Assembly: GCA_018702955.1 (NCBI GenBank)
Contig: JABJEK010000058.1
Coordinates: 47,150 to 111,149, forward strand
Reading direction: 5' to 3'
DNA: 64,000 bases
From: Rhodospirillaceae bacterium
GTDB taxonomy: Bacteria; Pseudomonadota; Alphaproteobacteria; UBA6615
Shown here piece by piece: positions 4,867 through 57,001 of this stretch. The first letter of the stretch is position 1. Each line of letters begins with the position of its first letter. A model generated the notes under the pieces. The model was not told the DNA's origin. It worked only from the letters and a program-made list of their open reading frames with translations, and ran no database searches. The position numbers were made by a program, and so were the translations under genes.

Positions 4867-4871
4867 ATATT

Positions 4872-5657
4872 CTAGTCCCCGTCATAGGTGATGGCTTCTT
4901 CCCCGTGGTGGGCCAGCAGGAAACCGATCGGACGTTCCATTTCCTCGTTTAAATGACCGATCAGGCCCACCGTGCGGGCGAGAATGGGAATCCCCCGGAT
5001 CGCCGCCTTGGGAAAATCCAGGTCGAGAAGCACTGCCGCCATCGGCCCTTGCAAATTCATCGGCAGCGGCTTGCCCCAGACCTCGGCAACAGCATCCGGG
5101 AAGGCCCGCAGCGCGCCAACATGGCGTGCAGACACGCCGCGCTCGTCCGCCAGATCGAGGATGCGTACCGCGCGGGGATCAACCGGGTGGTGGATGGGAT
5201 GGCCGAACCCGGGAATAAACTTGCCGGCGTCCTTGTATTCACGTGCGATGGCGAGCGCCGCCGCCTCGGGAGACTCTCCGCCCTCGATCCGCGTCGCCGC
5301 ATCATCGAGCATTTCGCCGCAAACATCCGCACTGCCCAGAATGACGGAGCCGACCCCGAGGAGGCCGGCCGCAACTGCGCCCTGCATGGCCTCCGGTGCT
5401 GCCGCCAGGGTCATGCGGGCCGCCTGCACACTCGGCGTCAGGCCATGTTCGGCCAGCGCCACCACCAGGACGTCCATGAAGAACGCCTGATCGGCGCTGG
5501 GCTCACGCCCTGTGAGATGAAGAAAGAAAAACTCGGCGATAGAGCTGTGCCCCATAACCTCATTGCATAGATCCTTCCCGCGTACCGTGATCGAGGTGGC
5601 ATCCGCCGTTTCGATGGCAGTTTTCGCCTCGCCCTTCTTACCAATCAGCATCGTCAT
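4872..5657 (-). CDS. Citryl-CoA lyase-like / citrate synthase-fold protein
   Basis: AEHGLTPS, IPGFGHPIH and ARTVGLIGH motifs; start placed at the ATG downstream of a GGGGAG RBS. Confidence 0.8.
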   Translation of the reverse strand: MTMLIGKKGEAKTAIETADATSITVRGKDLCNEVMGHSSIAEFFFLHLTGREPSADQAFFMDVLVVALAEHGLTPSVQAARMTLAAAPEAMQGAVAAGLLGVGSVILGSADVCGEMLDDAATRIEGGESPEAAALAIAREYKDAGKFIPGFGHPIHHPVDPRAVRILDLADERGVSARHVGALRAFPDAVAEVWGKPLPMNLQGPMAAVLLDLDFPKAAIRGIPILARTVGLIGHLNEEMERPIGFLLAHHGEEAITYDGD

Positions 5658-5841: not shown

Positions 5842-6957
5842 ATGAAATACGGAATGTTCGCAATGCCGCTCCGTCCGCCCGGGGGGGACGTCACCAAGGA
5901 ATACCATCAGGATATCGAAACCTTCGTCATGGGCGACAAGCTCGGCTACACCGAAGGCTGGATGGGCGAGCATTACACCATTCCGTGGGAGCCGATCCCG
6001 GCCACAGACCTCTTCGCCGCATCCGTATTCGCGCGCACCGAGAACATCCGCATCGGCACCGGCATCGTGCTGTTGCCCATGCACGATCCACGTCAGGTGG
6101 CATTGCGTATCGCTTATCTCGACCATCTGTCGAAAGGCCGCCTGAATTTCGGGATCGGTGCCGGTGGCGCCCCGACCGACTTCCAGTTCTGGGATATCGA
6201 CTACAAGGAAGGCGAGCATCGCGCACGCATGCGTGAATCGATCGACGTGATCAAGCGCTTGTGGACCGAAGACGAGCCGTTCGAACACAATGGCAAATTC
6301 TGGCAGTTCAAGGTGCCGGAACCGATGCCGCAAGTGCCGTTGGGCCATCACATTCGGCCCTATCAGGACCCGCATCCGCCGATCGCTGTATCGGGATTGC
6401 ACAAGGCGTCGGAATCGCTGTTCACGGCGGGGGCCAACGGCTGGATACCGATGAGCATCAACTACCTGCCGGCGGTCAACCTCAACACCCACTGGGATGC
6501 CGTGTGCGAGGGTGCGAAATCCACCGGCCGTCCCGCGCCGCGTCGCAGCGAGTGGCGGATTGCACGTGAGGTGTTTGTCGGCAAGACGGACCAGGAAGCG
6601 CGCGACCATGTGCTGAACGGCCCGATCGGACGTGCGTATACCGACTACATGTACAACGTGCTGAAGTCGCTGGGCGCGACCGATCTCTACAAGGGAGATC
6701 CGGACATGCCCGACGAAGCGCTGACGGCGGAGTATGTTTGCGACAATATCTGGGTTGTCGGCAGCCCCGACACGGTCGCGGAAAAGCTGAGCAAGCTCTA
6801 TGACGACGTGGGCGGTTTCGGCACCGTGCTGCAGATCCAATACACCTACGAACCGCACCAGATTTGGTACGACAACATGGACCTGTTCGCCAACAAGGTG
6901 ATGCCGAGCCTCGCGCACCTCGTGCCCGAAGACGAACCGGCCGCCGCAGCGCAGTAA
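5842..6957 (+). CDS. LLM-class (luciferase-like) flavin-dependent monooxygenase
   Basis: WMGEHY, IRIGTGIVLLP, LDHLSKGRLNFGIGAG, PYQDPHPPI and VVGSPDTV motifs. Confidence 0.9.
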   Translation: MKYGMFAMPLRPPGGDVTKEYHQDIETFVMGDKLGYTEGWMGEHYTIPWEPIPATDLFAASVFARTENIRIGTGIVLLPMHDPRQVALRIAYLDHLSKGRLNFGIGAGGAPTDFQFWDIDYKEGEHRARMRESIDVIKRLWTEDEPFEHNGKFWQFKVPEPMPQVPLGHHIRPYQDPHPPIAVSGLHKASESLFTAGANGWIPMSINYLPAVNLNTHWDAVCEGAKSTGRPAPRRSEWRIAREVFVGKTDQEARDHVLNGPIGRAYTDYMYNVLKSLGATDLYKGDPDMPDEALTAEYVCDNIWVVGSPDTVAEKLSKLYDDVGGFGTVLQIQYTYEPHQIWYDNMDLFANKVMPSLAHLVPEDEPAAAAQ

Positions 6958-6981
6958 CAGGGCACCAAAATGTTCGGCCCA

Positions 6982-7007
6982 CCCCGCATCACGCGCGTGA
7001 TGCGGGG
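6982..7007. other. Perfect 26-bp palindrome (intercistronic hairpin)
   Basis: CCCCGCATCACGC/GCGTGATGCGGGG, no adjacent U-tract. Confidence 0.75.
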
Positions 7008-7037
7008 CTCGCCAACATAAGCATCACGGAGACCTAA

Positions 7038-8069
7038 ATGTCCGTTGCCTCTGAATCGAAATTCCAAGTATCCCCCGATATCGCGGCATGCATTGCTGAA
7101 GAGCGCATTCCGATCATCGATGTCGGCGACTTTCTGTCGGGCGACGCCGATGCGCTGGAGCAGTTCGCGACCGACTTGCGGGCGATCCAGGAAAGCCTCG
7201 GCTTCTACTGCATCGTCAATCATGGCATCGATCAGGGGCTGATCGATCGCAGTTTCGACCAGATTGCGGAACTGTTTGCGCTGCCCGATGAGACCAAGTT
7301 GAAATACCGGGTAGACTTCCACCATCAAGGCTTCATCCCCAACAAATCGCTGATCCTGCGCTGGTCGAAGATTGCGAAGAATGAGAAGAAGGACCTGAAC
7401 GAGGCTTGGGCGTTCATGCGTGAGCGAACCGCCGATGATCCCAAGGTCAAAGACAATATCCGTCACCGAAACCTCAACCAGTGGCCGGAAGAGCTGCCGG
7501 AATTTCGCAAAACGCTTGTCGAGTATCAGGAAACCATGGCCGTATTGGCGACGCGGATGCTACCCGCTTATGCCCGGGCGCTCGAAATGCCGGCGGACTA
7601 TTTCGACGAGAAGTTTTCGCACCCCGAATATTACAACCGTTGTGCCTGGTATCCGCCCGTCGATGCCGAGGAGGGACAATTCTCACTGTCGCCCCATTCC
7701 GACCACAGCTCCATGACCTATCTGCCACTCATGGATGTGGCGGGACTTGAGGTCATGGCACCGTCGGGGAAATGGATGCAGATCGAGCCCCTGCGCGGTG
7801 CGATCGTCGTGAACACCGGTGAGTTCTTCAACCGCTGGACCAACGGACGTTTCATCGCCACGCCGCACCGCGTCGTACCGCCGCTGAAGGACCGCTACGC
7901 GCTGACATTCTTCTACAACTGCAACGACGAAACCGTGGCCGACCCGATCCCGACCTGCATCAATCCCGGAGATAAGCCGGTCTATGTACCCATGTCGTTC
8001 CACGACTTCTTCATCACCTATATGGATGGCAACTACATCTACCGCACGGCGGAGATGGACGGGGACTAG
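7038..8069 (+). CDS. 2-oxoglutarate/Fe(II) oxygenase, isopenicillin N synthase-like family
   Basis: IPIIDV N-terminal DIOX region; HSD...H facial triad (PHSDHS, TPHRV); NTGE..RWTNG motif. Confidence 0.9.
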   Translation: MSVASESKFQVSPDIAACIAEERIPIIDVGDFLSGDADALEQFATDLRAIQESLGFYCIVNHGIDQGLIDRSFDQIAELFALPDETKLKYRVDFHHQGFIPNKSLILRWSKIAKNEKKDLNEAWAFMRERTADDPKVKDNIRHRNLNQWPEELPEFRKTLVEYQETMAVLATRMLPAYARALEMPADYFDEKFSHPEYYNRCAWYPPVDAEEGQFSLSPHSDHSSMTYLPLMDVAGLEVMAPSGKWMQIEPLRGAIVVNTGEFFNRWTNGRFIATPHRVVPPLKDRYALTFFYNCNDETVADPIPTCINPGDKPVYVPMSFHDFFITYMDGNYIYRTAEMDGD

Positions 8070-8117
8070 TGGTCCTGGCCACCCACCCCCAGTATGTCCC
8101 GTGACGAAAGCAGTCGT

Positions 8118-8894
8118 ATGAGCGCTGAGCATATCCTGACCGAAACGCGTGATCGCGTGCTGTATGTGACCATCAACCGGGTGGAGAAACACAACGCGCT
8201 CGCGATTTCGATTATCGACGAAATCGGCGAGACCTTCCGCGCGGCGGCAAAGGACGAGACACTTGTGGCGGGCGTGCTGCGTGGAGCGGGCGAAAAGACC
8301 TTCGCCGCCGGCGGCGACTTGCGTGAACTGGCCGGGCTGCGCACCCAGACGGAAGCCGAAAAAATGGCAATCGATGCCAAGGCAGCATTTAACGCCATCC
8401 GGGATTTCCCCGTCCCGGTTATCGCAGGGCTCAACGGCAACGCCTTCGGCGGCGGGGCCGAGCTCGCCGTATCGTGTGACTTCCGCGTCGCGGCGGCCCA
8501 CGCCAAAATCGGCTTCGTCCAAGGTCGGCTAGCCCTGGCCACGGCATGGGGCGGCGGCCCGGACCTGCTCGACCTGGTCGGCCGCGCGCGGGGCCTGCGG
8601 CTGATGAGCACCGGCGAAATGCTCGACCCGGCAACAGCACTGGAAATTGGCCTGTATGACGCGGTGGGTCAGGCCGCCGAGCCCTTCGACGAAACAATCG
8701 AGGGCTTCCTCGCACCGATCCGCAAGCAGAAGCCGCAATCCATGCGTGCGTTCAAGGCCGTCAGCGATTCACACCGGCGCGGAGATGCTCGCACCGCGAT
8801 GCAAGAGATAGAGACCTGCATGTTCGTGAAGACCTGGGTCCATGACGATCACTGGGAGGCGGCCGAAAAGGTGCTTCCCACGAAGAAGGGCTGA
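8118..8894 (+). CDS. Crotonase-family protein, ECHDC1 (alkylmalonyl-CoA decarboxylase)-like
   Basis: FAAGGDL, GGGAELAVSCDFR and FVQGRLALATAWGGG motifs; the second catalytic Glu position is Gln. Confidence 0.8.
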   Translation: MSAEHILTETRDRVLYVTINRVEKHNALAISIIDEIGETFRAAAKDETLVAGVLRGAGEKTFAAGGDLRELAGLRTQTEAEKMAIDAKAAFNAIRDFPVPVIAGLNGNAFGGGAELAVSCDFRVAAAHAKIGFVQGRLALATAWGGGPDLLDLVGRARGLRLMSTGEMLDPATALEIGLYDAVGQAAEPFDETIEGFLAPIRKQKPQSMRAFKAVSDSHRRGDARTAMQEIETCMFVKTWVHDDHWEAAEKVLPTKKG

Positions 8895-8898
8895 CCCG

Positions 8899-10542
8899 AT
8901 GACCGACAATTCCGCCCCCCGGAAAGACGACGCCGAGGCCGCGCGTCGCGAGCCACCAACCAAACCCTCCACCGCAACTCCCTCGGGCATCGAGGTGCCG
9001 CCGGTGGTGACGCCGGATATGGTGGCAGACCGCGAACCGGAGATGCCGGGCGAATATCCGTTCACCCGCGGCATCTTCCCCGATGGTTTTCGCGGCCGAT
9101 TGTGGACCATTCGCCAGTATTCGGGTTTCGGCACGGCCGAGGAATCGAATGAGCGCTACAGGTTTCTGCTCGATCAGGGACAAACCGGCCTGTCGGTCGC
9201 GCTCGACTTGCCCACCCAGTGCGGCTACGACCCGGTCGATCCGATTGCGAAATCCGAAGTCGGCAAGGTCGGTGTCTCCCTGTCGAGCCTGGCCGAGGCC
9301 GAAATATTGTTCGACGGCATCGATCTGGGCGGAATCTCCACCTCCTTCACGATCAACGGCACCGCGTCGATCATCTACGCCATGTATTGCGCCGTCGCCG
9401 ACAAAAAGGGCGTACCGCGCGAGAAGCTGACCGGCACGATCCAGAACGACATCCTCAAGGAGTATGTCGCGCGCGGCACCTGGATTTTCCCGGTGCGCCC
9501 ATCGATGCGCCTGATCGCCGATACGATCCTGTTCTCCTATGACCAGACACCCCGATTCAACGCGATCAGCATCGCCGGCGCCCATGTGCGCGACGCGGGC
9601 TGCACGGCGGTCGAGGAGATGGGCTACACGCTAGCCAACGGGCTCGCCTATATCGACGAACTGATCCGCCGGGGCGGCGATGTGGAGAAATTCGCACGCC
9701 GGCTCAGTTTCTTCTTCTATGTGCACATGGATTTCTTCGAGGAAGTCTGCAAATTCCGCGCGGGTCGGCGGCTCTGGGCAAAACTCCTCACCGAACGCTA
9801 CGGCGTGAAGGATCCCAAGGCCCTTATGTTTCGTTTCGGCGTTGTCTGCGGCGGCTCGTCCCTGGTCGGCGCCCAGCCTTACAACAACGTCGTCCGCGTC
9901 GGCATCGAGAACATGGCGGCCGTGATGGGCGGCGCCCAATCCATCTTCACCGCCGCATTCGACGAGGCCTACCAGATTCCGACCGAGCATTCTGCGGAGA
10001 TCGCCGTCCGCACCCAGCAAATCGTCGCCCATGAATCCGGCATCGCACGAACCGTCGACCCATTGGGTGGCAGCCACTATGTCGAGTGGCTGACCGACCG
10101 GATGGAGGACGAAGTCATGAAGGTAATCGACGAGATCGAGGCATATGGTGGCGTGACCAAGGCGGTGGAAGACGGCTGGCTGCAGATGAAAATCGCCCAG
10201 CGCGCATCCGAGCGAAAACATAAGATCGACAGCGGTGAAACAGTCGTTGTCGGCCAGAACCACTTCCGTCGCGACGACCAGAATGACGGTGTCGCCGAAT
10301 TATTCAAACTCGACCCGCAAGCATCAGCCCGCGTCATCGGCAAGTTCGAAAAAGTCCGTGACAGCCGTGACAACGACGCGGTCACGGCATCCCTGTCTGC
10401 CCTGGAGGCAGCTGCCGCCAAGGACGATGAGAACCTCATGCCCTATCTGATCGATTGCTGTCATGCCTATGCAACTGTCGGTGAGATGGTGGCGACACTG
10501 AAGTCGCAATGGGGCGAATTCGAAGAACCAGTGAGGCTTTAG
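8899..10542 (+). CDS. B12-dependent acyl-CoA mutase, large (substrate-binding) subunit
   Basis: PGEYPFTRG, WTIRQYSGFG, GTIQNDILKEY, QPYNNVVRV and DPLGGSHYVE motifs; no B12 domain fused. Confidence 0.95.
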   Translation: MTDNSAPRKDDAEAARREPPTKPSTATPSGIEVPPVVTPDMVADREPEMPGEYPFTRGIFPDGFRGRLWTIRQYSGFGTAEESNERYRFLLDQGQTGLSVALDLPTQCGYDPVDPIAKSEVGKVGVSLSSLAEAEILFDGIDLGGISTSFTINGTASIIYAMYCAVADKKGVPREKLTGTIQNDILKEYVARGTWIFPVRPSMRLIADTILFSYDQTPRFNAISIAGAHVRDAGCTAVEEMGYTLANGLAYIDELIRRGGDVEKFARRLSFFFYVHMDFFEEVCKFRAGRRLWAKLLTERYGVKDPKALMFRFGVVCGGSSLVGAQPYNNVVRVGIENMAAVMGGAQSIFTAAFDEAYQIPTEHSAEIAVRTQQIVAHESGIARTVDPLGGSHYVEWLTDRMEDEVMKVIDEIEAYGGVTKAVEDGWLQMKIAQRASERKHKIDSGETVVVGQNHFRRDDQNDGVAELFKLDPQASARVIGKFEKVRDSRDNDAVTASLSALEAAAAKDDENLMPYLIDCCHAYATVGEMVATLKSQWGEFEEPVRL

Positions 10543-10551
10543 GATCGCACC

Positions 10552-10950
10552 ATGAGCCTGAACGGAAAACGTATCCTGATCGCGAAACCGGGCCTCGACG
10601 GGCACGATGTCGGCGCAAAAATCATCGCCCTGGCGCTGCGCGACGCAGGCGCCGACGTGATCTATACCGGCCTCCGGCGCACGCCCGACTATATCGCGCG
10701 GGTCGCGGTCGACGAGGATGTCGACGCGGTCGGACTGTCGATCCTGTCGGGCAGCCACAAGGAGCTGGTCGAGGAGACGGTGCGTTGTCTCAACGAGTTG
10801 GATGCTGGTGATATCCGCCTGTTCGTCGGCGGCACCATTCCGGCGGAGGACCATGACGAACTGCGCGATGCGGGCGCCCGCGGCATTTTCACGGCAGAAA
10901 TGACGATCAATGATGTGGTGGCCGCGCTCGACGCGGAACTGAGCGCGTGA
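10552..10950 (+). CDS. Acyl-CoA mutase small subunit (cobalamin-binding domain)
   Basis: KPGLDGHDVGAKII (DxHxxG), VGLSILSGSH and FVGGTIP motifs. Confidence 0.95.
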   Translation: MSLNGKRILIAKPGLDGHDVGAKIIALALRDAGADVIYTGLRRTPDYIARVAVDEDVDAVGLSILSGSHKELVEETVRCLNELDAGDIRLFVGGTIPAEDHDELRDAGARGIFTAEMTINDVVAALDAELSA

Positions 10951-12089
10951 GTGGAGGCCCCCTTTCCGGCGTTCGGATCATTGAGGTCGCGCATGTTCTC
11001 GCCGGCCCGTTCTGCAGCATGATTCTGGGCGACCTGGGCGCCGACGTGATCAAGGTCGAGCCCCCGGGCGGCGACATGGCCCGCAACATCACCAAGCAGT
11101 TCACGGGGCCCTACAACGACTATTTCGCGAGCCTCAACCGCAACAAGCGCTCCATCGTCCTCGACCTGAATACGCCGGCCGGTCAGGCCCAACTCGGCGC
11201 GCTCGCGGCCGATGCCCAAGGCCTGGTTACCAACCTGCGACCCGCCACCATTCGGCGTTTCGGCCTGACCTATGACGACCTGAAGCCCCACAATCCAAAT
11301 CTGGTTTGCCTGGCGTTGACGGGGTTTGGGCTCGACGGACCCTATGCCGACAAGCCTGCTTACGACTACATCGTCCAGGCGCTCGCCGGTGTCATGACCC
11401 TGACCGGTGACCCGGGCACCGCGCCGACCAAGGCCGGTTACTCCGCCGTCGACAATTCAACCGGCATGATGGGTGCCATCGGCCTGCTGGCGAAGATCAT
11501 CGAGGGCAAGGGTGGCCAGGTCGATGTCTCCCTGTTCGACACCATGCTGGCCCAGCTCAACTATCTGGCCTCGGGCTACCTCAACCACGGCATCGTCCCG
11601 CAACGAACATCGCAAAGTGCGCACCCGTACATGGTCCCGGCCCAGGTCTTCGAGACCAGCGACGGATACCTGATGTTGTTCATCTCGACCGACAAGTTCT
11701 GGAAGAAATTCTGCGAGGTCGTCGGCTGGACCGAACAGGCACGTGACCCGAACCTCGCAACCATGAATGCGCGGACGGAAAACCGCGACGCCGTGATCGG
11801 CGCCGTCGGCGAACTCATGAAGTCACAAACCACCGCATACTGGGTCGAGACACTCGGCAACGAGGGCCTCGTGGTCTCGGGCGTCGAAACCCTCGACCAG
11901 GCACTCGATGGGGACATGGCCGCATCGCGTGAGATGATAGCGGTAATTCCCACACCCGACGGTGCGCTCCGCGTGGTCGGTAATCCGATCAAGATGACCG
12001 ATCATCCGCCCCGGTATGGCCTGCCGCCGCTGCTGGGCGAACATACTGACGAAATCCTGGGCACCTCGCCCGCCGCCGCAGCCAAATGA
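10947..12089 (+). CDS. Family III CoA-transferase (CaiB/BaiF)
   Basis: LAGPFCSMILGDLGADVIKVEPPGGD, NRNKRSI and YSAVDNSTG (catalytic Asp position) motifs. Confidence 0.93.
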   Translation: MSGGPLSGVRIIEVAHVLAGPFCSMILGDLGADVIKVEPPGGDMARNITKQFTGPYNDYFASLNRNKRSIVLDLNTPAGQAQLGALAADAQGLVTNLRPATIRRFGLTYDDLKPHNPNLVCLALTGFGLDGPYADKPAYDYIVQALAGVMTLTGDPGTAPTKAGYSAVDNSTGMMGAIGLLAKIIEGKGGQVDVSLFDTMLAQLNYLASGYLNHGIVPQRTSQSAHPYMVPAQVFETSDGYLMLFISTDKFWKKFCEVVGWTEQARDPNLATMNARTENRDAVIGAVGELMKSQTTAYWVETLGNEGLVVSGVETLDQALDGDMAASREMIAVIPTPDGALRVVGNPIKMTDHPPRYGLPPLLGEHTDEILGTSPAAAAK

Positions 12090-12985
12090 GCGGCACGTCA
12101 CGCAATCCGCGGCGAAACCTCAGCCGCGCGCTGTCGCGCATCGCCAACGCCGATGTCTACGAGACCCTGGCACAGCAGAGCGGACCATCCGCAGAAAACC
12201 TGCCGCGGATCGGCATCACGGGCGCACCGGGCGCGGGCAAAAGCTCCCTCATCGCCAGGCTCGCCAAGCTCCGCAAACGCAACGACCGAAAGATCGCGGT
12301 GCTGGCGGTCGACCCGTCGAGCCCGGTCTCCCAGGGTTCCATCCTCGGCGACCGGATTCGCATGGACGCCATCGCCGACGACCCGGACATCTTCATCCGC
12401 TCGATCCCCTCGCGCCGCGCCCATGACGGCCTGGCGGACAACACCGCCGATCTGCTCAACGCCATGGAAGGGCACGGGTTCGGCGAAATCATTCTTGAGA
12501 CAGTGGGCGTCGGACAGGCCGAGTACACCATCCGCACATTGGTCGACACGGTGGTGCTCATCCTGGTGCCCCATTCCGGCGATGCCATCCAGGCGATGAA
12601 GGCCGGCATTCTCGAAATGGCCGATATCTATGTTGTAAACAAGGCCGACCTGCCCGGCGCCGACCTGATGGCCACCGAAATCGAGCAAGTGGCCGACCAT
12701 CAAAGCGCCGACGGCTGGACCCCACCCGTCATCATGACGTCCCGCAACGATCCCGAGGGCTTTGCCGCGCTCGATGACGCCATCAATGCCCATATGGCCT
12801 GGCAGGTGAACCACGGCGATCCGGCCGCAGCGCGGCGCGCCCGCGCGCGCTACCAGGCCCAGGCGCTCATTTCCCGGCGCATCGACGAAGTGCTCGAGGC
12901 GGCCGGCGAAGATATCCTCGACCAGAATCCCGGCGAGCTGTTCGACGCGATCGTCGCCCGGCTCGGCCGCACAAACGAGGCATGA
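12086..12985 (+). CDS. meaB: MeaB/ArgK mutase-associated GTPase
   Basis: GITGAPGAGKSS, AVDPSSP, LGDRIRM, ETVGVGQ and VNKAD motifs; adjacent to the mutase genes. Confidence 0.92.
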   Translation: MSGTSRNPRRNLSRALSRIANADVYETLAQQSGPSAENLPRIGITGAPGAGKSSLIARLAKLRKRNDRKIAVLAVDPSSPVSQGSILGDRIRMDAIADDPDIFIRSIPSRRAHDGLADNTADLLNAMEGHGFGEIILETVGVGQAEYTIRTLVDTVVLILVPHSGDAIQAMKAGILEMADIYVVNKADLPGADLMATEIEQVADHQSADGWTPPVIMTSRNDPEGFAALDDAINAHMAWQVNHGDPAAARRARARYQAQALISRRIDEVLEAAGEDILDQNPGELFDAIVARLGRTNEA

Positions 12986-13905
12986 CACAAATGTTCGCAC
13001 CACCCCCTGTCATCGAAACCCGGGTCTTCGCCGATGTGAATGCGACCCACGGCATCAATGACCGGGAGTCCGAATGGGCGAAGCTCCTGTTCGGCCGCCC
13101 CAACACGCCGAGTTTCCTCGAGGGACCCTCGTTTGATCGCGCCGGCAATCTCTGGCTCGTCGATGTCGCCTGGGGCCGTCTGTTCCGTATATCGCCGGCC
13201 GGCGATATCGAGCTTGCCTGTACCTATGACGGCGAGCCCAATGGCTTGGCCTTCCACAAGGACGGACACGGCATCATCGCCGACCATTATCACGGGCTGA
13301 TGCGCCTCGATCCCGAGGCCGGCACGGTGGAACCTCACATGGTGCGCAACACCAATGAGCGGTTTCGCGGCACCAACGACCTGACCTTCGCCTCGAACGG
13401 CGACCTCTACTTCACCGACCAGGGCACGTCCGACCTGATTGATCGGTCGGGCCGGGTGTTTTGCCTGCATGCGGATGGCACCCTCGAACTCGTCTGCGCG
13501 GACCTGCCGAGCCCGAACGGGCTGGTCCTGAGTGGCGACGAGAAAATTCTGTATGTGGGCCTGACCCGCGACAACGCGGTCTGGCGCATGCGCCTGGCCG
13601 AACGCGGCCGCGCGGATCAGGTGGGGCGTTTCGCGCGCATGTCGGGCGGCACCGGCCCGGACGGCATGGCCGCGGACGCCGACGACAACCTTCTCGTCTG
13701 CCATGTCGGGTTCGGCGCGATCTGGGTGTTCGCAGCCAACGGAGAGCCGATCTACCGGATCAACTCCTGCGCCGGGCCGTTGATGACCAACTGTGCATTC
13801 GGGGGGCCCGACGGCAAGACCCTCTACATCACGGAATCGGCTACCGGTCAGGTGCTCACGGCCGAGATGCCGACGGCGGGCCGCATTCTATTTTCACACA
13901 TGTAG
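12982..13905 (+). CDS. SMP-30/gluconolactonase family beta-propeller
   Basis: FLEGPSFD, PNGLAF, TNDLTF.LYFTD, PNGLVLS and PDGMAAD motifs. Confidence 0.9.
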   Translation: MTQMFAPPPVIETRVFADVNATHGINDRESEWAKLLFGRPNTPSFLEGPSFDRAGNLWLVDVAWGRLFRISPAGDIELACTYDGEPNGLAFHKDGHGIIADHYHGLMRLDPEAGTVEPHMVRNTNERFRGTNDLTFASNGDLYFTDQGTSDLIDRSGRVFCLHADGTLELVCADLPSPNGLVLSGDEKILYVGLTRDNAVWRMRLAERGRADQVGRFARMSGGTGPDGMAADADDNLLVCHVGFGAIWVFAANGEPIYRINSCAGPLMTNCAFGGPDGKTLYITESATGQVLTAEMPTAGRILFSHM

Positions 13906-13907
13906 AC

Positions 13908-13979
13908 GGGCGGGTTACAAACCCGCCCCTACTGACCACACGCGCGGACCGGATGTAGGGGCAGGTTTCAAACCTGCCC
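13908..13979. repeat. Inverted doublet of GTAG-type REP-like elements
   Basis: GGGCGGGTTACAAACCCGCCCCTAC (13908-13932, reverse) and GTAGGGGCAGGTTTCAAACCTGCCC (13955-13979). Confidence 0.8.
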
Positions 13980-22279: not shown

Positions 22280-22980
22280 TTAGAAAACATAGATACCCGA
22301 AAATGCCTGCTTGAGATCATCTCCGAGAGTAATTCTTCCTGTGTCAGTCGAAATCGTGATCTCCTTGTTGAGCAACACCAAATCGACTGCGCCAAACGCG
22401 CCAGCCAAACTACGAACAAAACAGATTGCCTCATCGCTTTTGCTGAGACGGCTGTTCAGAAAAACTACCGTAGACAAAATGCGACCGTGTGAGCTCACGG
22501 CATTAAGGAAGAAGCAATCTTGTTCCGGCCCGATCAGTCTCCGTGCCTTTTCCTGATAGCCTTCTGCGCCGAAGAAGAATTGGTTCAGAACAGATCTCAC
22601 TAACGGATCGTCTGACTCGATAATCGAATCGAACCCCCGACCCCGTAAAACAATCATGTTGGGCGAGAGATTCGCTTCCTTAACTCTCACCCCACTCCAC
22701 TCCTGCATCCTTACGGCCGCCGCCCTTACGCCAAACTTCTTGTATTCCTCGAAGGCAAAAAAACTGAATGCCTTAGGCGCGAACGCAATGTGCAAATCAG
22801 CTGTTCGGAAATAGACAATTTCCGAGTCAGATTGTGCGATCTGATTTGACGCAGGCTGTAATGTCGCCTCCGCACCAACTGAGGCCGACCAGAGGCCCAT
22901 GACAATCGCGCTGAACACCATCACCACATTCAAGAATATGTTTCGGTTTTTCCGGTCGGGTCGAAGAAACAAGCTTGTAC

Positions 22981-22984
<4 letters not shown>
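22280..22984 (-). CDS. Hypothetical exported protein, AT-rich
   Basis: 234-codon ORF with a signal-peptide-like segment; hand-counted GC of 45-48% on three 60-mers versus ~68% in a flanking gene; ATGA overlap with the upstream stop. Confidence 0.55.
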
Positions 22985-24672
<1,688 letters not shown>

Positions 24673-24720
24673 GAATTCTCTCCCCGGGATCTCTCTGTGC
24701 CGATTCATACCATAGCGGCA

Positions 24721-24760
24721 AAACAAAACCCCACCCGCGGCAGATCGCGGATGGGGCTCT
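24721..24760 (-). terminator. Rho-independent terminator after the selenoprotein gene
   Basis: On the minus strand: CCCCATCCGCG-ATCTGC-CGCGGGTGGGG followed by TTTTGTTT. Confidence 0.7.
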
Positions 24761-24786
24761 GGATCACTCGGAAGCTGTCGGTTCGG

Positions 24787-25431
24787 CTAGAGCGCCTGAA
24801 CGTCCGCCAGCGTCTTCTCCGGCTCCGGCCGGGAGGTGTAGTTCGGGTCGATGTCGGTCGCGCGGACGATGCCGCTGCTGTCGACAACAATCCGGCCCGG
24901 CATCGGCAGCGTCCAGCTGTCGTCGCCGTTCGTACCCGGAATGTCGAGCCCGAAGCCCTGGTAGATCTTCTTGACCTCCGGCGGGATCTCGAACTTGAGA
25001 CCGAGTTCCGACAGATAGCCGTGACCTGGGTCGGAAAGCATATGGAAATTAAGGCCGTGCTTTTCGGTCATGGCCTTGTTGTGCTCAACGAGCTGAGGGG
25101 TGATGGCGACCAGTGTGGCGCCGGCTTCGTCGAGGGAACTTACAATATCGCGCATAGCATACAGCTCTGCATTGCAATACGGTCACCAGTGGCCGCGGAA
25201 CACCGTCAGGACGACAGCTCCCTTGGACAGCAGGTCGGCGGAGTTGATCATCGCTCCGTCGGCGTTCTCAAGACTGAAGGCTGGCAACGTATCGCCGACC
25301 TTGATGGTTCGATCCAGAATGCCGGATTCGCGCAATTCCTGGGTCGCTTTGCCCATGGTCGCGCGGACTTCCTCTGGCATTTTGGCCGCACCCGCAGCGC
25401 TAATCGCCGCAAGCTTCTCTCCTAAACTCAT
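24787..25431 (-). CDS. Peroxiredoxin-like (AhpC/TSA) selenoprotein, 214 aa with Sec at the in-frame TGA 25183-25185
   Basis: The two track ORFs are in frame and join as FRGHW-TGA-PYCNAEL, matching the family motif RGxWCPYCN. Confidence 0.88.
25151..25181 (-). promoter_or_regulatory. Putative bacterial SECIS hairpin
   Basis: Minus strand CGTATTGCAATGCA-GAGC-TGTATGCTATGCG folds into a stem with a G-first tetraloop 15 nt after the UGA. Confidence 0.65.
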
Positions 25432-25570
25432 GAATACCCCTCTTTCTGATCGTCAATCGACCGACCCGAACCCTACACGCCAATAGGGGGACCGGCCAAT
25501 GGTCCACCCGTGACCGGGGAATCAATGACTTGTGACGACCGAGGCATAGACCTCCCGACAAACGGGATTA

Positions 25571-27083: not shown

Positions 27084-27160
27084 TGGTGGGCCCGGCAGGA
27101 CTCGAACCTGCGACATGACCGTTATGAGCGGTCCGTTCTAACCAGCTGAACTACGGGCCC
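27084..27160 (-). tRNA. tRNA-Ile2 (CAU anticodon, lysidine-type)
   Basis: GGGCCCGTAGTTCAGCTGGTTAGAACGGACCGCTCATAACGGTCATGTCGCAGGTTCGAGTCCTGCCGGGCCCACCA: 77-nt cloverleaf with encoded CCA. Paired G1 rules out the initiator; C4-G69/C5-G68 favour Ile2 over elongator Met. Confidence 0.9.
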
Positions 27161-29311: not shown

Positions 29312-31348
<2,037 letters not shown>

Positions 31349-31408
31349 ATTTTTCCCTCGCAGCGGCGGCGGACAATGCCGCGCTATCGCGCACTTGCCA
31401 AATTATTC

Positions 31409-33232
31409 CTAAAGACTGCCCGCACCGGATTCTTCGCGGACCAACTCGAGAAGTTTATTGCTGCTCGTCTCGTTGTTGTCGTCCTTAAGTTCGTTCGTTG
31501 CATCAACTCGATCAGGGGCCAAGCGTTCCCGCCGGTATCGATACTGCCCCAGAATTTCATCCAGCGCAGCACGCGCATCGGCGATCGTCGCATCCGGCGC
31601 CGCAAACGACGCCTGCCGGTACACTTGTGTATGCAATACCTGTCCCAGCGGTACTTCATAACCGCTACCGATCAAATGGCGTTGCAGGTCCCGAGTGTCA
31701 AGCGCTGGCTTCGTGACCGCGAGGTTTAAGATCACCCGGAGCAGGGTGTCAAGTTCCTTGCTTTGCAGGGAAATTTCATTCAGCGGCTCCAGGGAGTCGT
31801 GCAAAAGGTCAGGGTGATTGACCAATGTGGCGACCAGCATCCGTTCCTGCTGCAGCTTCATCGCCCCGATATCGCCGCGCGCGCCCAACCCCGGGGCCAA
31901 TTCCGGCCGTTTCGGGCCGTCTCTGCGGCCCCGGAACTGCTGATTTCCGCTCTTTGCGGGTCGGGCGACAAAAAACAGGTCGCGCAGGCGCTGCCGCAGG
32001 CTCTGCTGATAGTGATACTTGACCCCGGGATCCTCGATTTGTGCCAGCCGGGCGTTAATCCGCCGCTCGAGGTCCGCGCGGCGTTCCGGCGTGTCATGAC
32101 TGGCGGCAGACACTTCGGACTGCCACAGCACATCCACGAGTTGGTGGGCGCCCGCGAGAAGCTTGCGGAAGCCCTCCGCACCGCGCGCCTTGATCAGCGT
32201 ATCGGGATCATCGCCCGACGGCAGCGCCATGAAGCGCAGTGTCTTCCCGGGCTGCAACAGGGGCAAGGCGCGTTCGGCTGCGCGCAACGCGGCACGCTCT
32301 CCCGCGGTATCGCCATCGAAGCACAGCACCGGCTCATCCGCGACGCGCCAGACGAGACGCATCTGGTCTTCGGTCAGCGCCGTTCCCAGTGGTGCGACGG
32401 CGTTGGGCAGGCCCGCCTGGGCCAGCGCGATCACGTCGGTGTAGCCCTCTGCGACAATCACCGTGCCGGCATCGCGCGACGCCTCCCGGGCCATCGTGAA
32501 ATTGTACAGGCTGCGGCCCTTGTGAAAGAGCGGCGTCTCGGGGGAGTTGAGATACTTCGGCTGGCCGTCGCCGAGGATACGCCCGCCGAACGCGATCACC
32601 CGGCCGCGGCTGTCGTTGATCGGAAAGATGACCCGGTTGAAGAAATAGTCGCGGGGATTCCCGCCGCCTTCAGGCAGCTTGATCAGCCCGGCCTCGACCA
32701 GCTGGTCCTGGCGCACGCCGCGCGCTTCCATCGCCTGCAGCAGGCGGCCGCGCCCATCGGGCGCAAAGCCCAGGCGAAATCTGCCAATGGTCTCGTCGGT
32801 GAACCCGCGATCGCGCAGATAGTCATAGGCTGCGCGCCCACCCGGCTGGGAAAGCTGCTCCTCGTACCAGGCACAAACTTGTTCAACCACGTCATACAAC
32901 GTCGAGCGCACCTTCGCGCGTTCGCGCTCTTGCGGAGACGATTGCGGCACCTCGAGCCCGGCCTGCCCGGCGAGGCGTTCGATCGCCTCGGGAAAGCTCA
33001 GTCCGTCGGTTTCCATGGCAAAGGTGATGACGTCACCGTGTTGGCCACAGCCGAAGCAGTGATAGAAGGCCTTGTCGTCATTCACCGTGAACGACGGCGT
33101 CTTTTCGTTGTGGAACGGGCACAGGCCGGTGAACTCGCGGCCCTTGCGGGTCAGGCGCACTTTCTTGCCCACGACCTCCGACACCGGAAGCCGCGTGCGC
33201 AACTCATCGAGAAATTGCGGCGGAAAGGCCAT
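31409..33232 (-). CDS. dnaG: DNA primase
   Basis: CPFHNEKTPSF..CFGC zinc finger, KYLNSPET, EGYTD and FDGD TOPRIM motifs. Confidence 0.98.
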   Translation of the reverse strand: MAFPPQFLDELRTRLPVSEVVGKKVRLTRKGREFTGLCPFHNEKTPSFTVNDDKAFYHCFGCGQHGDVITFAMETDGLSFPEAIERLAGQAGLEVPQSSPQERERAKVRSTLYDVVEQVCAWYEEQLSQPGGRAAYDYLRDRGFTDETIGRFRLGFAPDGRGRLLQAMEARGVRQDQLVEAGLIKLPEGGGNPRDYFFNRVIFPINDSRGRVIAFGGRILGDGQPKYLNSPETPLFHKGRSLYNFTMAREASRDAGTVIVAEGYTDVIALAQAGLPNAVAPLGTALTEDQMRLVWRVADEPVLCFDGDTAGERAALRAAERALPLLQPGKTLRFMALPSGDDPDTLIKARGAEGFRKLLAGAHQLVDVLWQSEVSAASHDTPERRADLERRINARLAQIEDPGVKYHYQQSLRQRLRDLFFVARPAKSGNQQFRGRRDGPKRPELAPGLGARGDIGAMKLQQERMLVATLVNHPDLLHDSLEPLNEISLQSKELDTLLRVILNLAVTKPALDTRDLQRHLIGSGYEVPLGQVLHTQVYRQASFAAPDATIADARAALDEILGQYRYRRERLAPDRVDATNELKDDNNETSSNKLLELVREESGAGSL

Positions 33233-33921: not shown

Positions 33922-33950
33922 TTGACGACTCCCGCACGGTGCCGTAAACA
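33922..33950 (+). promoter_or_regulatory. Putative sigma70 promoter for carAB
   Basis: TTGACG-N17-TAAACA. Confidence 0.45.
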
Positions 33951-34065
33951 ACGCGGCAATTTGCGCCCCCGACAGGTGCTTCCGGCCCCACAACGGTCGG
34001 CCCAGGAACAAATTTGCCCCGGCGGCCCCGCGATTGCGGCCCCGCCACCCCGAGGATCGGAAGAC

Positions 34066-35238
34066 ATGGCCGTTGCCGCGCCACAAGACCGGAGCCAGCC
34101 TGAATGGGCGACCGGCGCATTGGTCCTGCCTGACGGGTCCGTATTCTGGGGCCGCGGGATCGGCGCCACGGGTGTCGCCGTCGCCGAGGTGTGCTTCAAC
34201 ACCTCGCTGACCGGGTATCAGGAAATTCTGACCGACCCGTCCTATGCCGGCCAGATCATCACCTTCACCTTCCCCCATATCGGCAATGTCGGCGCGAATC
34301 CGGAAGACATCGAGACGACAACACCCGCGGCACGCGGCTGCGTCCTGCGCGCCAATATCACCGACCCGTCCAATTGGCGCGCCGTCGAGCATCTGGATGC
34401 CTGGCTCAAATCGAACGACATGGTCGGCATTGCGGGCGTCGACACACGCCGCCTGACCCGACATATCCGCGACGCGGGCGCGCCCAACGGCGCCATCGCC
34501 CACCAGCCCGACACCCCCATCAACGCGGCCACCTTGCGCGCCGCGGCCAGCGACTGGCCCGGCCTCGAAGGGGCTGACCTCGCCAAGGACGTGTCCTGCA
34601 CGCAGACATATGAGTGGACGGAGACCCCCTGGGCGCTCGGCACCGGCCATGGCGAGATGACCAAACCGGCCCGCCATGTGGTGGCGGTCGACTTCGGCGC
34701 CAAGCGCAACATCCTGCGCTCACTCGCCGGCCTGGGTTGCAAGGTGACCGTCGTCCCCGCCTCAGCCAGTGCCGACGATATCCTGCGCCACAAGCCCGAC
34801 GGGGTGTTCCTGTCGAACGGCCCGGGTGATCCGGCGGCGACCGGCAAATATGCCGTGCCGACAATCAAGGCGATCGTCGACGCCGGTGTGCCGACCTTCG
34901 GGATATGTCTGGGCCACCAGATGCTTTGCCTCGCACTGGGTGCGAAGACCGAAAAAATGCATCACGGCCATCGCGGTGCGAACCACCCGGTCAAGGATCT
35001 GGCGACCGGCAAGGTGGAGATCACCAGCCAGAACCACGGCTTCGTGGTGCTCGAGAAATCCCTGCCCGCGAATGTGGAGATGAGCCACCAGTCCCTGTTC
35101 GACGGCTCACTCGAGGGCATCCGGGTGAAAGACGCGCCGGTCTTCTCGGTCCAGTACCACCCCGAGGCCTCCCCCGGCCCCCATGACAGCCACTACCTGT
35201 TCGAACGGTTCGTGGAAATGATCGACGGACAAGGCTGA
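34066..35238 (+). CDS. carA: Carbamoyl-phosphate synthase small subunit
   Basis: [35 protein letters not shown] and [12 protein letters not shown] motifs. Confidence 0.98.
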
Positions 35239-35240
35239 CC

Positions 35241-38200
35241 ATGCCCAAACGCACAGACATCAAATCCATCATGATCGTCGGCGCCGGGCCGATCATCATC
35301 GGCCAGGCCTGCGAGTTCGACTATTCGGGCACCCAGGCCGTGAAGGCGCTGAAGGACGAGGGCTACCGGGTCATCCTGGTGAACTCGAACCCGGCGACGA
35401 TCATGACCGATCCGGAATTCGCCGACGCCACCTATATCGAGCCGATCACGCCGGAGATGGTGACCAAGATCCTCGAGGCCGAGCGGCCCGACGCGATCCT
35501 GCCGACCATGGGCGGCCAGACCGCGCTCAACACCTGTCTGACCCTGGCGCGCGACGGCACCTTCGACCGGCTCGGCATCGAGATGATCGGCGCGCGCGCC
35601 GACGTCATCGACAAGGCCGAAGACCGGCTGCAGTTCCGCGAGGCGATGGACAAGATCGGGCTGGAATCACCGCGCTCCATGCAGGTGAACAATCGCGTGG
35701 ACGCCGAGACCGCACTCGACATGGTGCGCCTGCCCGCGATCATCCGGCCGAGCTTCACCCTGGGCGGCCAGGGCGGCGGCATCGCCTACAACCGCGACGA
35801 ATTCTTCGAGATCGTCATGGGCGGGATCGACGCGTCGCCGGTCAGCGAAGTGCTGGTCGAGGAATCGGTCCTCGGCTGGAAGGAGTATGAGATGGAGGTC
35901 GTCCGCGACAAGGCGGACAACTGCATCATCATCTGCGCCATCGAGAACATCGACCCGATGGGCGTGCATACGGGCGATTCCATCACGGTCGCGCCAGCGC
36001 TGACCCTGACGGACAAGGAATACCAGATCATGCGCGACGCCTCGATCGCGTGTCTGCGCGAGATCGGGGTCGAGACCGGCGGGTCGAATGTTCAGTTCGC
36101 CATCAACCCGAAAAATGGCCGCATGGTTGTGATCGAGATGAACCCCCGGGTCAGCCGTTCCTCCGCACTGGCCTCCAAAGCCACCGGGTTCCCGATCGCC
36201 AAGATCGCGGCGAAACTCGCGGTCGGCTATACCCTCGACGAGCTGACCAACGAGATCACCGGCACCACCCCGGCCAGCTTCGAGCCGACCATCGACTATG
36301 TCGTCACCAAGATGCCGCGCTTCACGTTTGAGAAGTTCCCGGGCACCGAGGCGACCCTGACCACGTCGATGAAGTCCGTCGGCGAAGTCATGTCGATCGG
36401 CCGCACCTTCGCCGAGAGCCTGCAGAAGGCCTATCGCTCGATGGAAACCGGGCTGACCGGCCTCAACGAGGTCACGATCCCCGGCGCGCACACCGGCAAG
36501 GGCGTCGACGAGGACGCGGTGTTCGCCGCACTCGGACAGCCCACACCCGAACGTCTTCTCAATATCGCCCAGGCCTTCCGGCTCGGTATTTCCGCCGACG
36601 ACATCCAGCGTGTCACCCATTTCGACCCGTGGTTCCTGGGCCAGATTTCGGCGATCGTGCAGGCCGAAACCCATGTGCGCGAGACAGGGCTCCCCGACAA
36701 TTTCGACAGCCTGATGCGCTTGAAGCGGATGGGCTTTTCCGACGAACGGCTGGCCGAGCTGTCGGACAAGACCGAGGCCGACGTGGCAGCCCTGCGCGAC
36801 AAGCTCGACCTGCACCCGGTGTTCAAGCGGATCGACACCTGCGCGGCTGAGTTCCCGAGCCTGACGCCGTATATGTATTCCGCCTATGAGGGAGATTCCT
36901 CCCAGCCGGGCGAATGCGAGGCCGAGCCAAGCGACCGCGAGAAGATCATGATCCTTGGCGGCGGGCCGAACCGCATCGGCCAGGGGATCGAGTTCGACTA
37001 TTGCTGCGTCCACGCCGTCTTCGCACTTGAGGAAGCCGGCTATGAAACGATCATGGTCAACTGCAACCCGGAAACCGTCTCGACCGATTACGACACGTCC
37101 GACCGGCTCTATTTCGAGCCGCTGACCGCCGAAGACGTGATCGAGATTTGTCGGCTCGAGCAGACAAACGGCACCCTCAAGGGCGTCATCGTGCAGTTCG
37201 GCGGCCAGACGCCGCTCAAATTGGCACACGCGCTGGAAGCGGCCGGCATCCCGATCCTCGGCACCTCGCCCGACGCGATCGATCTGGCCGAAGATCGCAA
37301 ACGGTTCCAGAAACTGCTTCAGGATTTGGAACTGCGCCAGCCCGAGAACGCGATCGCGACCAGTGCGGAAGAAGCGCTGGCCGCGGCCGAGGAACTCGGC
37401 TTCCCGATCCTGATCCGGCCCTCCTATGTGCTGGGCGGCCGGGCCATGGAACTGGTCCATGAAATGGACGCGCTGACCCGCTACATCAACGAGGCCGTGC
37501 GCGTGTCGGGCACCAGCCCGGTGTTGCTCGACCGGTATCTGCAGGACGCCATCGAAGTCGATGTGGATGCGCTCTGCGACAGCGCGGGCAACGTCCACGT
37601 GGCGGGCATCATGGAGCATATCGAGGAAGCCGGTATTCATTCCGGCGACAGCGCATGTTCCCTGCCCCCCTATTCGCTCAGCGCGCCCGTGCTGGTCGAG
37701 ATCCGACGCCAGACCGAAGTGCTGGCGCAGGCGCTGAATGTTCTGGGCCTGATGAATGTCCAGTATGCGGTGAAGGATGAAGAGGTCTACCTGATCGAGG
37801 TCAACCCGCGCGCCAGCCGCACCGTCCCCTTCGTGGCCAAGGCAACCGGGGTGGCGATCGCCAAGGTCGCGGCGCGTCTGATGGCGGGCGAGATGATCGC
37901 CGACTTCGATCTGCCGGATACGTCCAAGCCCAGCGGCCATGTTGCGGTCAAGGAAGCGGTCTTCCCCTTCGCGCGGTTCCCGGGGGTCGACACGCTCCTG
38001 GGCCCGGAGATGAAATCCACCGGTGAGGTCATGGGGCTCGACCGCGATTTCGGTCACGCCTTCGCGAAATCCCAGATCGGCAGCGGCACCGTGGTGCCCG
38101 TCAGCGGCCGGGTGTTTATCTCGGTGCGCGAGCGTGACAAGGAGGCCATGGTCGAAATGTCACGCGGGCTCGTCGATATGGGTTTCGAGATTGTCGCGAC

Positions 38201-38507
38201 GAGCGGCACCGCACGTCACCTCGCCGACAACGGCATTCCCGTCGACACCATCAACAAGGTGCTCGAGGGACGCCCGCACATCGTCGATGCGATGCAGAAC
38301 GGCGAAATCCAGCTGGTCTTCAACACCACAGAGGGTGCACGCTCGATTGCCGATAGCTACAGCCTGCGCCGCACAGCCCTGAATCAGCGCATCCCCTACT
38401 ACACCACAGTCGCGGGCGCGCGGGCCGCGGTGGCATCAATTAACGCGATGCGCAGCGGCGCACTTGAAGTCGCGCCACTTCAGTCGTATTTTAGTATCGA
38501 CTTTTGA
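35241..38507 (+). CDS. carB: Carbamoyl-phosphate synthase large subunit
   Basis: [25 protein letters not shown]-terminus; duplicated ATP-grasp domains. Confidence 0.99.
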
Positions 38508-47490: not shown

Positions 47491-48462
47491 ATGTCCGAGA
47501 CCCATCACACCAAGGTTCTGATCCTTGGTTCCGGCGCCGCCGGCTGCACCGCGGCCATCTACGCCGCCCGCGCCAACCTGAAACCCATGATGGTGCACGG
47601 CATGCAGCCGGGTGGTCAGCTGACGATCACGACGGAAGTCGAGAACTATCCCGGCTTTGCCGACGTAATCCAGGGCCCCTGGCTCATGGAACAGATGGTC
47701 GAACAGGCCGAGAAAGTCGGTACGGAGATCTTCGACGATCTGATCGTTGATGTGGATTTCAGCACCCGGCCCTTCACCTGCACCGGAGATTCCGGCGATA
47801 TTTACACCGGCGACACGGTCATCGTGGCAACGGGCGCATCGGCCAAGTGGCTGGGCCTCGAAAGCGAACAGAAGTTCTCGGGCTTCGGCGTGTCGGCTTG
47901 TGCGACCTGCGACGGGTTTTTCTACCGCGACAAACCGGTCGCCGTGATCGGCGGCGGCAACACGGCCGTCGAGGAAGCGCTGTTCCTCACCAATTTCGCC
48001 TCCAAGGTGACCCTGATCCATCGGCGCGACGAACTTCGTGCCGAAAAGATCATGCAGGATCGCCTGATGCGTCACGAGAAGATCGACGTTGCCTGGGATA
48101 CGGTCCTGGAAGAGGTCGTGGGCACCGAAGACCCGCCGGGCGTGACCGGGGCCAAGCTCAAGAACATCAAAAGCGGCGACAGCCAGGATCTGGAAGTGGA
48201 CGGCGTCTTCATCGCCATCGGGCATGACCCGAACACCAAGATATTCCAGGGCAAACTGGACATGGACGACGAAGGCTACCTCATCACCGCGCCCGACAGC
48301 ACCGAGACCAACATTCCCGGTGTGTTCGCCGCAGGCGACGTCAAAGACAAGATTTATCGTCAGGCCGTGACCGCAGCCGGGATGGGCTGCATGGCCGCAC
48401 TCGAAGCCGCGAAGTATGTTGCGGAGCATGAAGACGCGGCCACGCAGAACGCGGCCGAATAA
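47491..48462 (+). CDS. trxB: Thioredoxin-disulfide reductase
   Basis: [28 protein letters not shown] and GVFAAGDV motifs. Confidence 0.98.
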
Positions 48463-55781: not shown

Positions 55782-55784
55782 CGG

Positions 55785-56993: not shown

Positions 56994-57001
56994 CGTCGGG
57001 C

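Follow-up and report, generated by a model that had tools for sequence, protein, structure and literature searches.

The Prx-like UxxC selenoproteins of bacteria were reportedly predicted by Kryukov and Gladyshev in 2004, and to our knowledge the insertion of selenium has never been demonstrated experimentally for this family. The consensus model of the bacterial SECIS element (bSECIS), for its part, is said to come from Zhang and Gladyshev in 2005. The Sargasso Sea data contain 22 sequences of the Prx-like selenoprotein (Zhang et al. 2005, PMC1088965), which occurs in the genomes of Geobacter, Syntrophus and Desulfotalea (Zhang et al. 2006, PMC1794560), and under the name 'Prx-like 1' (pfam00578, UxxC) accounts for 225 sequences in the GOS data (Zhang et al. 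2008, PMC2398784). A 2026 review gives the family as 'Prx-like thiol:disulfide oxidoreductase, PF00578, UxxC/UxxU', 'predicted with high confidence' (PMC13188914).

In the 64-kb stretch of DNA analysed here (the window, 64,000 nucleotides), positions 25431..24787 of the minus strand very probably hold a single Prx-like gene with the motif U83-P-Y-C86, whose UGA is predicted to be recoded as selenocysteine (Sec) by means of a hairpin in the coding sequence. Membership of the Prx-like UxxC family, whose type member is WP_010940744.1 of Geobacter, rests on the domain, the motif and the description in the literature. Compared in this way, the window protein and the family do not differ qualitatively. 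The domain is PF00578, the motif is a thioredoxin-like UxxC as opposed to the TxxU of the Sec-peroxiredoxins, and the Cys homologues carry CxxC; marine metagenomes are rich in members of the family, Deltaproteobacteria such as Desulfotalea are known carriers, and the loci described below include Desulfobulbales MAGs. With every testable defining feature of the family present, the sequence places the window gene within it. The subfamily studied here is marked by an N-terminal helical hairpin of about 40 residues and by the strict motif W-U-P-Y/F-C.

Three further groups are close enough to be compared. The Sec-peroxiredoxins (Prx, TxxU) are also selenoproteins with an AhpC/TSA fold and are found in similar organisms, but in them Sec replaces the peroxidatic Cys, whereas the window protein keeps C86 at that place and would have its Sec three residues upstream; in terms of the PxxxT/SxxC motif of Prx, the Thr/Ser position is taken by the predicted Sec and the Pro position by Arg79. 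SelL (eukaryotic Prx-like2, UxxU) likewise has a CxxC-type motif containing Sec on a thioredoxin fold of the Prx-like kind, but its Sec residues are two, whereas one is predicted here, together with a bacterial SECIS inside the coding sequence. Finally, ResA/TlpA/DsbE, BCP/PrxQ and AhpE (3c71, 2cx3, 5epf and 1xvw) share the fold, and the WCPHC of ResA aligns with WCPxC; they use Cys, however, and are without the N-terminal helical extension, and ResA, TlpA and DsbE are membrane-anchored or periplasmic while a cytoplasmic location is proposed for the window protein.

A 214-codon frame with one internal TGA

The gene occupies 24787..25431 on the minus strand, 214 codons running from an ATG at 25431..25429 to a TAG stop at 24789..24787. 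Its translation contains one internal stop, at codon 83 (...AVVLTVFRGHW*PYCNAELYAMRD...). This TGA (25183..25185, minus strand) stands at the first position of the UxxC motif, where it would be read as Sec, and the partner position is the TGC codon of Cys86 (25174..25176, minus strand), the putative resolving residue, which is invariant in all alignments. In the mechanical list of ORFs the gene appears as two separate entries, an 82-aa ORF at 25183..25431 and a 122-aa ORF at 24787..25155. The initial annotation had joined these two into one frame, and translation bears this out, the TGA being the sole interruption; the string on which it relied, TTC CGC GGC CAC TGG TGA CCG TAT TGC AAT, is correct as the reverse complement of 25203..25174. 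The Cys86 codon comes after the TGA but before the next ATG, and so it would be translated only upon read-through of the TGA.

A Shine-Dalgarno-like GAGGGG is found in the sequence at 25437..25442 (minus strand), 5 nt before the ATG at 25431. Downstream, 31 nt past the stop codon, there is an intrinsic-terminator-like hairpin at 24720..24756 (minus strand), with arms CCCCAUCCGCG and CGCGGGUGGGG of about 11 bp followed by UUUUGUUUU; a terminator scan gave the stem 24744..24730 plus the T run, and the longer stem comes from reading the sequence directly. With this Shine-Dalgarno motif and strong terminator-like hairpin, the transcription unit looks monocistronic.

Two ORFs run antisense to the coding strand here, one of 292 aa at 24547-25425 (plus strand) and one of 518 aa at 22975-24531 (plus strand), overlapping the selenoprotein and acyl-CoA ligase genes. 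Both have the low GC3 that marks shadow ORFs when a genome has 62% G+C, and on this basis we judge that they are not genes.

Conservation of the TGA codon and selection on both sides of it

The best 120 matches from a search of a 5.8-billion-protein collection included full-length relatives of 214-233 aa (40-63% identity), and about 50 of the 120 were C-terminal fragments of 122-141 aa, which matched no more than the final 57% of the query, with 63-98% identity; some of the fragment clusters bear the name 'redoxin domain-containing protein'. On the contigs of matches P0006 and P0076 the public calls are split in the same way as in the window, an 82-aa gene (uncalled domain) being followed after 27 nt by a 122/123-aa gene, and the flanks are also those of the window, with a TauE-family membrane protein and an AMP-binding acyl-CoA ligase on opposite sides. 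The description of the selenoprotein as hidden thus holds for annotation, where those 50 or so fragments stand among the best 120 matches, but not for the family as such, which is well known to selenoprotein researchers.

Some entries in the public collection are irregular. In match P0015 (L084:352-1011) the use of genetic code 4 has turned the TGA into Trp, so that the protein reads WWPYC where Sec would stand, and a second TGA near the C-terminus is likewise read through in the public translation. Match P0017 (141 aa, from a 678-bp contig) is permuted, the C-terminal part of the family coming first and the N-terminal part second, with the end ...FRGHW; the probable origin is a reading across the stop of either a tandem copy or an artefact of assembly.

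A scan of 185,579 species-representative genomes yielded 80 loci, 79 of them from MAGs and the remaining one, a Cys form, from a Janthinobacterium isolate (L078). At the position marked x in the motif [FY]RG.W-x-P[YF]C, TGA is present in 74 of the 80 loci and in the window. The other six, which are the most distant (40-45% identity), have Cys codons there (TGC in five, TGT in one) and provide the Cys-containing homologues for which the initial annotation had proposed to search. As it had also stated, the TGA falls on the first Cys of CPYC, aligning with the WCPYC of full-length Cys homologues. By their record titles, the TGA carriers belong to Rhodospirillaceae, Rhodospirillales, other Alphaproteobacteria, Methyloligellaceae and Hyphomicrobiales, and further to Gammaproteobacteria, Betaproteobacteria (a Hydrogenophaga MAG), Desulfobulbales, Nitrospirota, Rokubacteria and Acidobacteria. 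Because 74 of the 80 loci share a TGA at that very codon, its placement is far beyond chance. Two MAGs with a Sec-form gene (L052 and L057, 53-57% identity) are titled 'Klebsiella sp.' and 'Klebsiella pneumoniae', names that look doubtful for environmental bins.

Both parts of the gene are under purifying selection, in agreement with the earlier view that both halves are intact. Against relatives, dN/dS was 0.09-0.20 in the first part (codons 1-82) and 0.09-0.38 in the second (codons 84-214), the latter range narrowing to 0.09-0.25 without the distant gammaproteobacterial locus L039. For the nine codons from the TGA to the next ATG (PYCNAELYA), dN was 0 against all the relatives compared except the most distant, L062, for which it was 0.10.

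A TGA is only one base away from TGC or TGT, so the window might hold a pseudogene, a Cys-type gene broken by a recent nonsense mutation or by an error of sequencing or assembly; the initial annotation had itself considered mutation and sequencing error. However, the same TGA recurs in 74 genomes that were assembled independently of one another, with protein identities of 40-92%, the two halves are both held by purifying selection, and the nearest full-length relatives have no Cys at position 83. Because the TGA is conserved in 74 orthologues, we regard such an error or mutation as practically excluded.

The second explanation to be weighed is that of a split redoxin, in which translation would stop at the TGA to give a protein of 82 aa and start again at the ATG at 25155 to give another of 122 aa. 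Gene callers do annotate two genes in the relatives of the window, and in the window itself an ATG does lie nine codons past the TGA, but the segment that these two proteins would leave out, PYCNAELYA, contains the invariant Cys86 and is the one in which dN is 0 except against L062. Nor does the second protein have a conserved start, since codon 93, its putative first codon, encodes Leu in 86% of the orthologues, and direct reading of the sequence found no Shine-Dalgarno motif ahead of the internal ATG comparable to that of the gene. Moreover, the Cys and Ser homologues of full length each form one chain, and a fragment of 122 aa would, by the structural model, miss the active site and the first beta-strands. 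Taken with these points, a pair of small proteins appears extremely improbable, and we continue with a single protein of 214 codons.

The closest full-length relatives, P0001, P0002 and P0003 (61-63% identity), have Ser at the Sec position and therefore an SxxC motif like that of peroxiredoxins.

A SECIS-type hairpin downstream of the TGA

Within the coding sequence, a SECIS-like stem-loop was located at 25146..25179 (minus strand) from the minimum free energy (MFE) fold, covariation and synonymous constraint. Its upper stem of seven positions (25170..25164 with 25158..25152) begins 12 nt after the TGA and closes on an apical loop of 5 nt, UGUAU (25163..25159), while a lower stem (25179..25174 with 25151..25146) is clade-specific. 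The hairpin could be aligned without gaps in 68 distinct sequences, and in these most Proteobacteria show the loop UGUAU, whereas Desulfobulbales and others show UGGAA or UGGAU.

RNAalifold recovered the 7-bp helix from the 68-sequence alignment. Standard pairs made up 95.6% of the positions in register, compared with 25-53% when the 3' arm was slid by 1-3 columns, and two pairs had changed on both sides (six cells, with two changes from G-C to C-G and four from C-G to U-A); none of 500 shuffles matched the observed pairing or covariation score. The codons that form the hairpin are constrained as well. Over 71 distinct genes the synonymous entropy was 0 at E89 (always GAG) and at L90 (always CTG), and at A92 it was 0.40 bits, compared with 1.4-2.3 bits at the remaining conserved Leu codons. 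The control was a pair of Cys-type homologues with the same peptide, CNAEL.AL, which use other codons and pair at three and five of the seven positions in register; in the six distant Cys loci, three or four of the seven are paired.

In the window the hairpin is part of the MFE fold (-10.5 kcal/mol for the 40 nt from the UGA), as it is in the MFE folds of six relatives; the fold of the window sequence by itself is not significant (z -0.94). The fourth pair of the window hairpin is a G.A mismatch, because codon 93 is ATG. The same mismatch is found in 11 of the 68 sequences, the window and ten others, among them its nearest relative, L003; the close relatives L004 and L005 have TTG at codon 93 and a paired fourth position. 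A long-range pairing seen in an initial fold of 74 nt was also considered as a SECIS and rejected, the short hairpin being preferred because it is the only one of the two that is conserved.

The bSECIS consensus has a loop of 3-9 nt, a stem of 4-16 bp, an MFE of -7.5 kcal/mol or lower, a G at loop position 1 or 2 (then usually G/U) and a distance of 16-37 nt from UGA to loop (PMC13188914). All of these are found in the window, with its loop of 5 nt, stem of seven positions, UG at the start of the loop, spacing of 19 nt and -10.5 kcal/mol. The hairpin also resembles the E. coli fdhF-type SECIS in lying inside the ORF right after the UGA, in its small loop with G then U on the 5' side, and in its spacing (about 11-12 nt from UGA to stem and 19 nt from UGA to loop), but its sequence is unrelated and no bulged U is evident. 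A search of Rfam gave no match to a SECIS family, either at the gathering threshold or at E <= 10.

One of the Ser-type relatives, P0002 (L083:79-726), has the Ser codon TCG at the Sec position and yet retains a perfect hairpin of this type (7/7), which suggests a recent replacement of Sec by Ser and not the usual exchange between Sec and Cys.

Selenocysteine machinery in orthologous loci

In the 64-kb window ARAGORN detected no tRNA-Sec, its only hit being a tRNA-Met at 27084-27160 (minus strand), and no SelA, SelB or SelD turned up when its 20 largest coding ORFs were scanned with Pfam. Orthologues of the gene are, however, physically linked to sel genes in other genomes. In the Hydrogenophaga MAG (L051, region 6298-13950) the order is selA (Pfam SelA 3e-157), selB (with SelB-specific domains), tRNA-Sec (9826-9919) and the orthologue (10001-10642), and directly beyond the orthologue, on the opposite strand, comes a Pyr_redox_2-SelD fusion of the Ndh-SelD type, about 947 aa long. 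In a gammaproteobacterial MAG (L046, 3401-10642), selA, selB and tRNA-Sec (9880-9975) lie directly upstream of the orthologue. A Rhodospirillaceae MAG (L034) has selD about 8 kb from the orthologue on the same contig. In MAG JABIXB01 the Sec-form gene is on one contig (L041) and selB and selD are on another (L089); four SelD clusters were traced to contigs, and JABIXB01 was the sole assembly among them that also carries a Sec-form gene. With the SelD of L034 as query, none of the best 120 matches came from the large contigs of the closest relatives of the window (85-92% identity). Since the window has no sel genes, we infer, as the initial annotation had done, that the source genome carries selABCD outside it.

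Read-through of the UGA could also be imagined to insert an amino acid other than Sec, by a near-cognate Trp or Cys tRNA or by a local reassignment, with the hairpin acting as a mere stimulator. That no Sec machinery is seen in the window would fit this, as would the public call that rendered the orthologous TGA of P0015 as Trp under code 4. A general reassignment of TGA (code 4 or 25) was rejected, since TGA is the ordinary stop of 22 of the 53 other predicted genes in the window and the code is therefore not reassigned; the same count speaks against the insertion of another amino acid. Beyond this, the homologous position holds a redox-active Cys in relatives, which makes a classic Sec/Cys pair, the hairpin fits the SelB-type bSECIS model, and orthologues sit within selA-selB-selC clusters. 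We consider insertion of another amino acid very unlikely. Our reading remains that the in-frame TGA almost certainly encodes selenocysteine, as judged from the codon and its surroundings.

Two scans of the window for a second gene split by TGA, based on in-frame TGA codons with coding-like GC3 in their flanks, brought up nothing but the ends of genes and antisense frames. Another split gene was met elsewhere. In L089 of MAG JABIXB01 (4081-5307), directly after selD, an ORF of 153 aa of the GRDB family ends in a TGA and is in frame with the next called gene, of 248 aa, the junction reading ...MLIPV-TGA-PFCTRAVG...; the same arrangement is found beside selD in L087-L118. By its frame and motif, the split gene of JABIXB01 is evidently a second selenoprotein cut by gene callers, GrdB/PrdB-like and with UxxC.

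Protein fold and predicted mechanism

When C is put in place of U, a Pfam search of the protein gives AhpC-TSA (PF00578) over residues 45-191 (2.4e-23, 82.8 bits against a cut-off of 26) and Redoxin (8.6e-18), the two together spanning residues 45-200, and the initial description of a peroxiredoxin-like enzyme is borne out by the first of these domains. Among NCBIfam models none reached its cut-off. The top ones were a BCP-type thiol peroxidase, ResA and the SelL-related redox protein, and the scores stayed well below the thresholds for the SelL-related redox protein NF040769 (28.3 bits against 120, so that the window protein does not belong to it), ResA (37.1 against 170), DsbE (21.8 against 123) and TlpA (17.8 against 230).

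When the protein was aligned with solved structures, W-U-P-Y-C fell on the W-C-P-H-C of ResA, and Cys86 aligned with the peroxidatic Cys of BCP 2cx3 (FSPVC), so that the predicted Sec occupies the conserved Ser/Thr position of the peroxiredoxin motif. The canonical PxxxT/SxxC context is absent, with Sec in place of Thr/Ser at -3 and Arg79 in place of Pro at -7. The structure was approached through an AF2 model (pLDDT 96.1) of the Cys homologue P0009, the nearest of the Cys type at 50% identity, which stood in for the window protein. In this model a thioredoxin/peroxiredoxin fold follows two N-terminal helices, with the CxxC at the N-terminus of helix 84-102. Its top PDB matches were BcpB 5epf, Bcp4 3hjp and AhpE 1xvw (TM, target, 0.86-0.89), followed by ResA, and a Prx/BCP-type fold was thereby recovered, for the homologue.

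Taken together with the motif, this suggests the following course of events. The product would be a cytoplasmic, Prx-like thioredoxin-fold oxidoreductase of the AhpC/TSA type. The stem-loop, with its 7-bp upper stem, its UGUAU loop and the G and U at loop positions 2-3, would serve as a bacterial SECIS that brings SelB.GTP.Sec-tRNA(Sec) to the ribosome and leads to the recoding of the UGA at codon 83 as Sec. The selenolate of U83, at the N-terminus of the active-site helix, may then attack a peroxide or a disulfide as its oxidised substrate, giving a selenenylsulfide with C86, which would in turn be reduced by a thioredoxin- or glutathione-type system; the enzyme would thus work as a CxxC-type thiol oxidoreductase whose nucleophile is a selenolate. 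The insertion of selenium and the nature of the substrate are here, like selABCD of the source genome, what we infer for this protein. A thioredoxin-reductase-like Pyr_redox_2 gene at 47491-48462 (plus strand), about 22 kb away, is a possible candidate for the reductant system.

Implications

Read as a whole, the window gene is by its sequence, and in support of the initial annotation, a genuine selenoprotein gene and an ordinary member of the known Prx-like UxxC family, and it brings no new principle. Its value is chiefly one of annotation, as a widespread selenoprotein is systematically cut in two in the protein sets of public MAGs and metagenomes. As a consequence of the split annotation, inventories of redox proteins and estimates of selenium use are biased, in marine Alphaproteobacteria and in other lineages. 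The by-products of the analysis are a view of the extent of this misannotation, a SECIS alignment, and the gene order selA-selB-selC-prx in two lineages. The alignment in question, 68 in-ORF SECIS sequences with covariation and a control of Cys homologues, could seed a covariance model by which the family might be recognised automatically.

The position of the gene directly behind selA-selB-tRNA-Sec, in line with their transcription, in two loci, together with its many carriers among aerobic marine Alphaproteobacteria, hints that its role perhaps goes beyond that of a generic antioxidant. One could imagine, as an unlikely prospect, that the Prx-like protein is a dedicated part of selenium handling, or else an anchor selenoprotein that maintains the Sec trait in its carrier lineages. 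If the first were true, the protein might protect or deliver reactive selenium species, or keep SelD and SelA reduced; under such a scheme, the U, C and S variants at one position, including a Ser form with a SECIS, would record repeated gain and loss of the Sec trait.

Other features of the window

Apart from the genes already mentioned, Pfam scans identified rpoD-dnaG at 29312-33232 (minus strand), carA, which is followed by an ORF of 1088 aa that is probably carB (33922-38507, plus strand), and genes of the glycolate-oxidase type, GlcD/GlcF, at 54489-58489 (minus strand). TAG is unusually frequent as a stop codon in the window, ending 22 of the 53 predicted genes.
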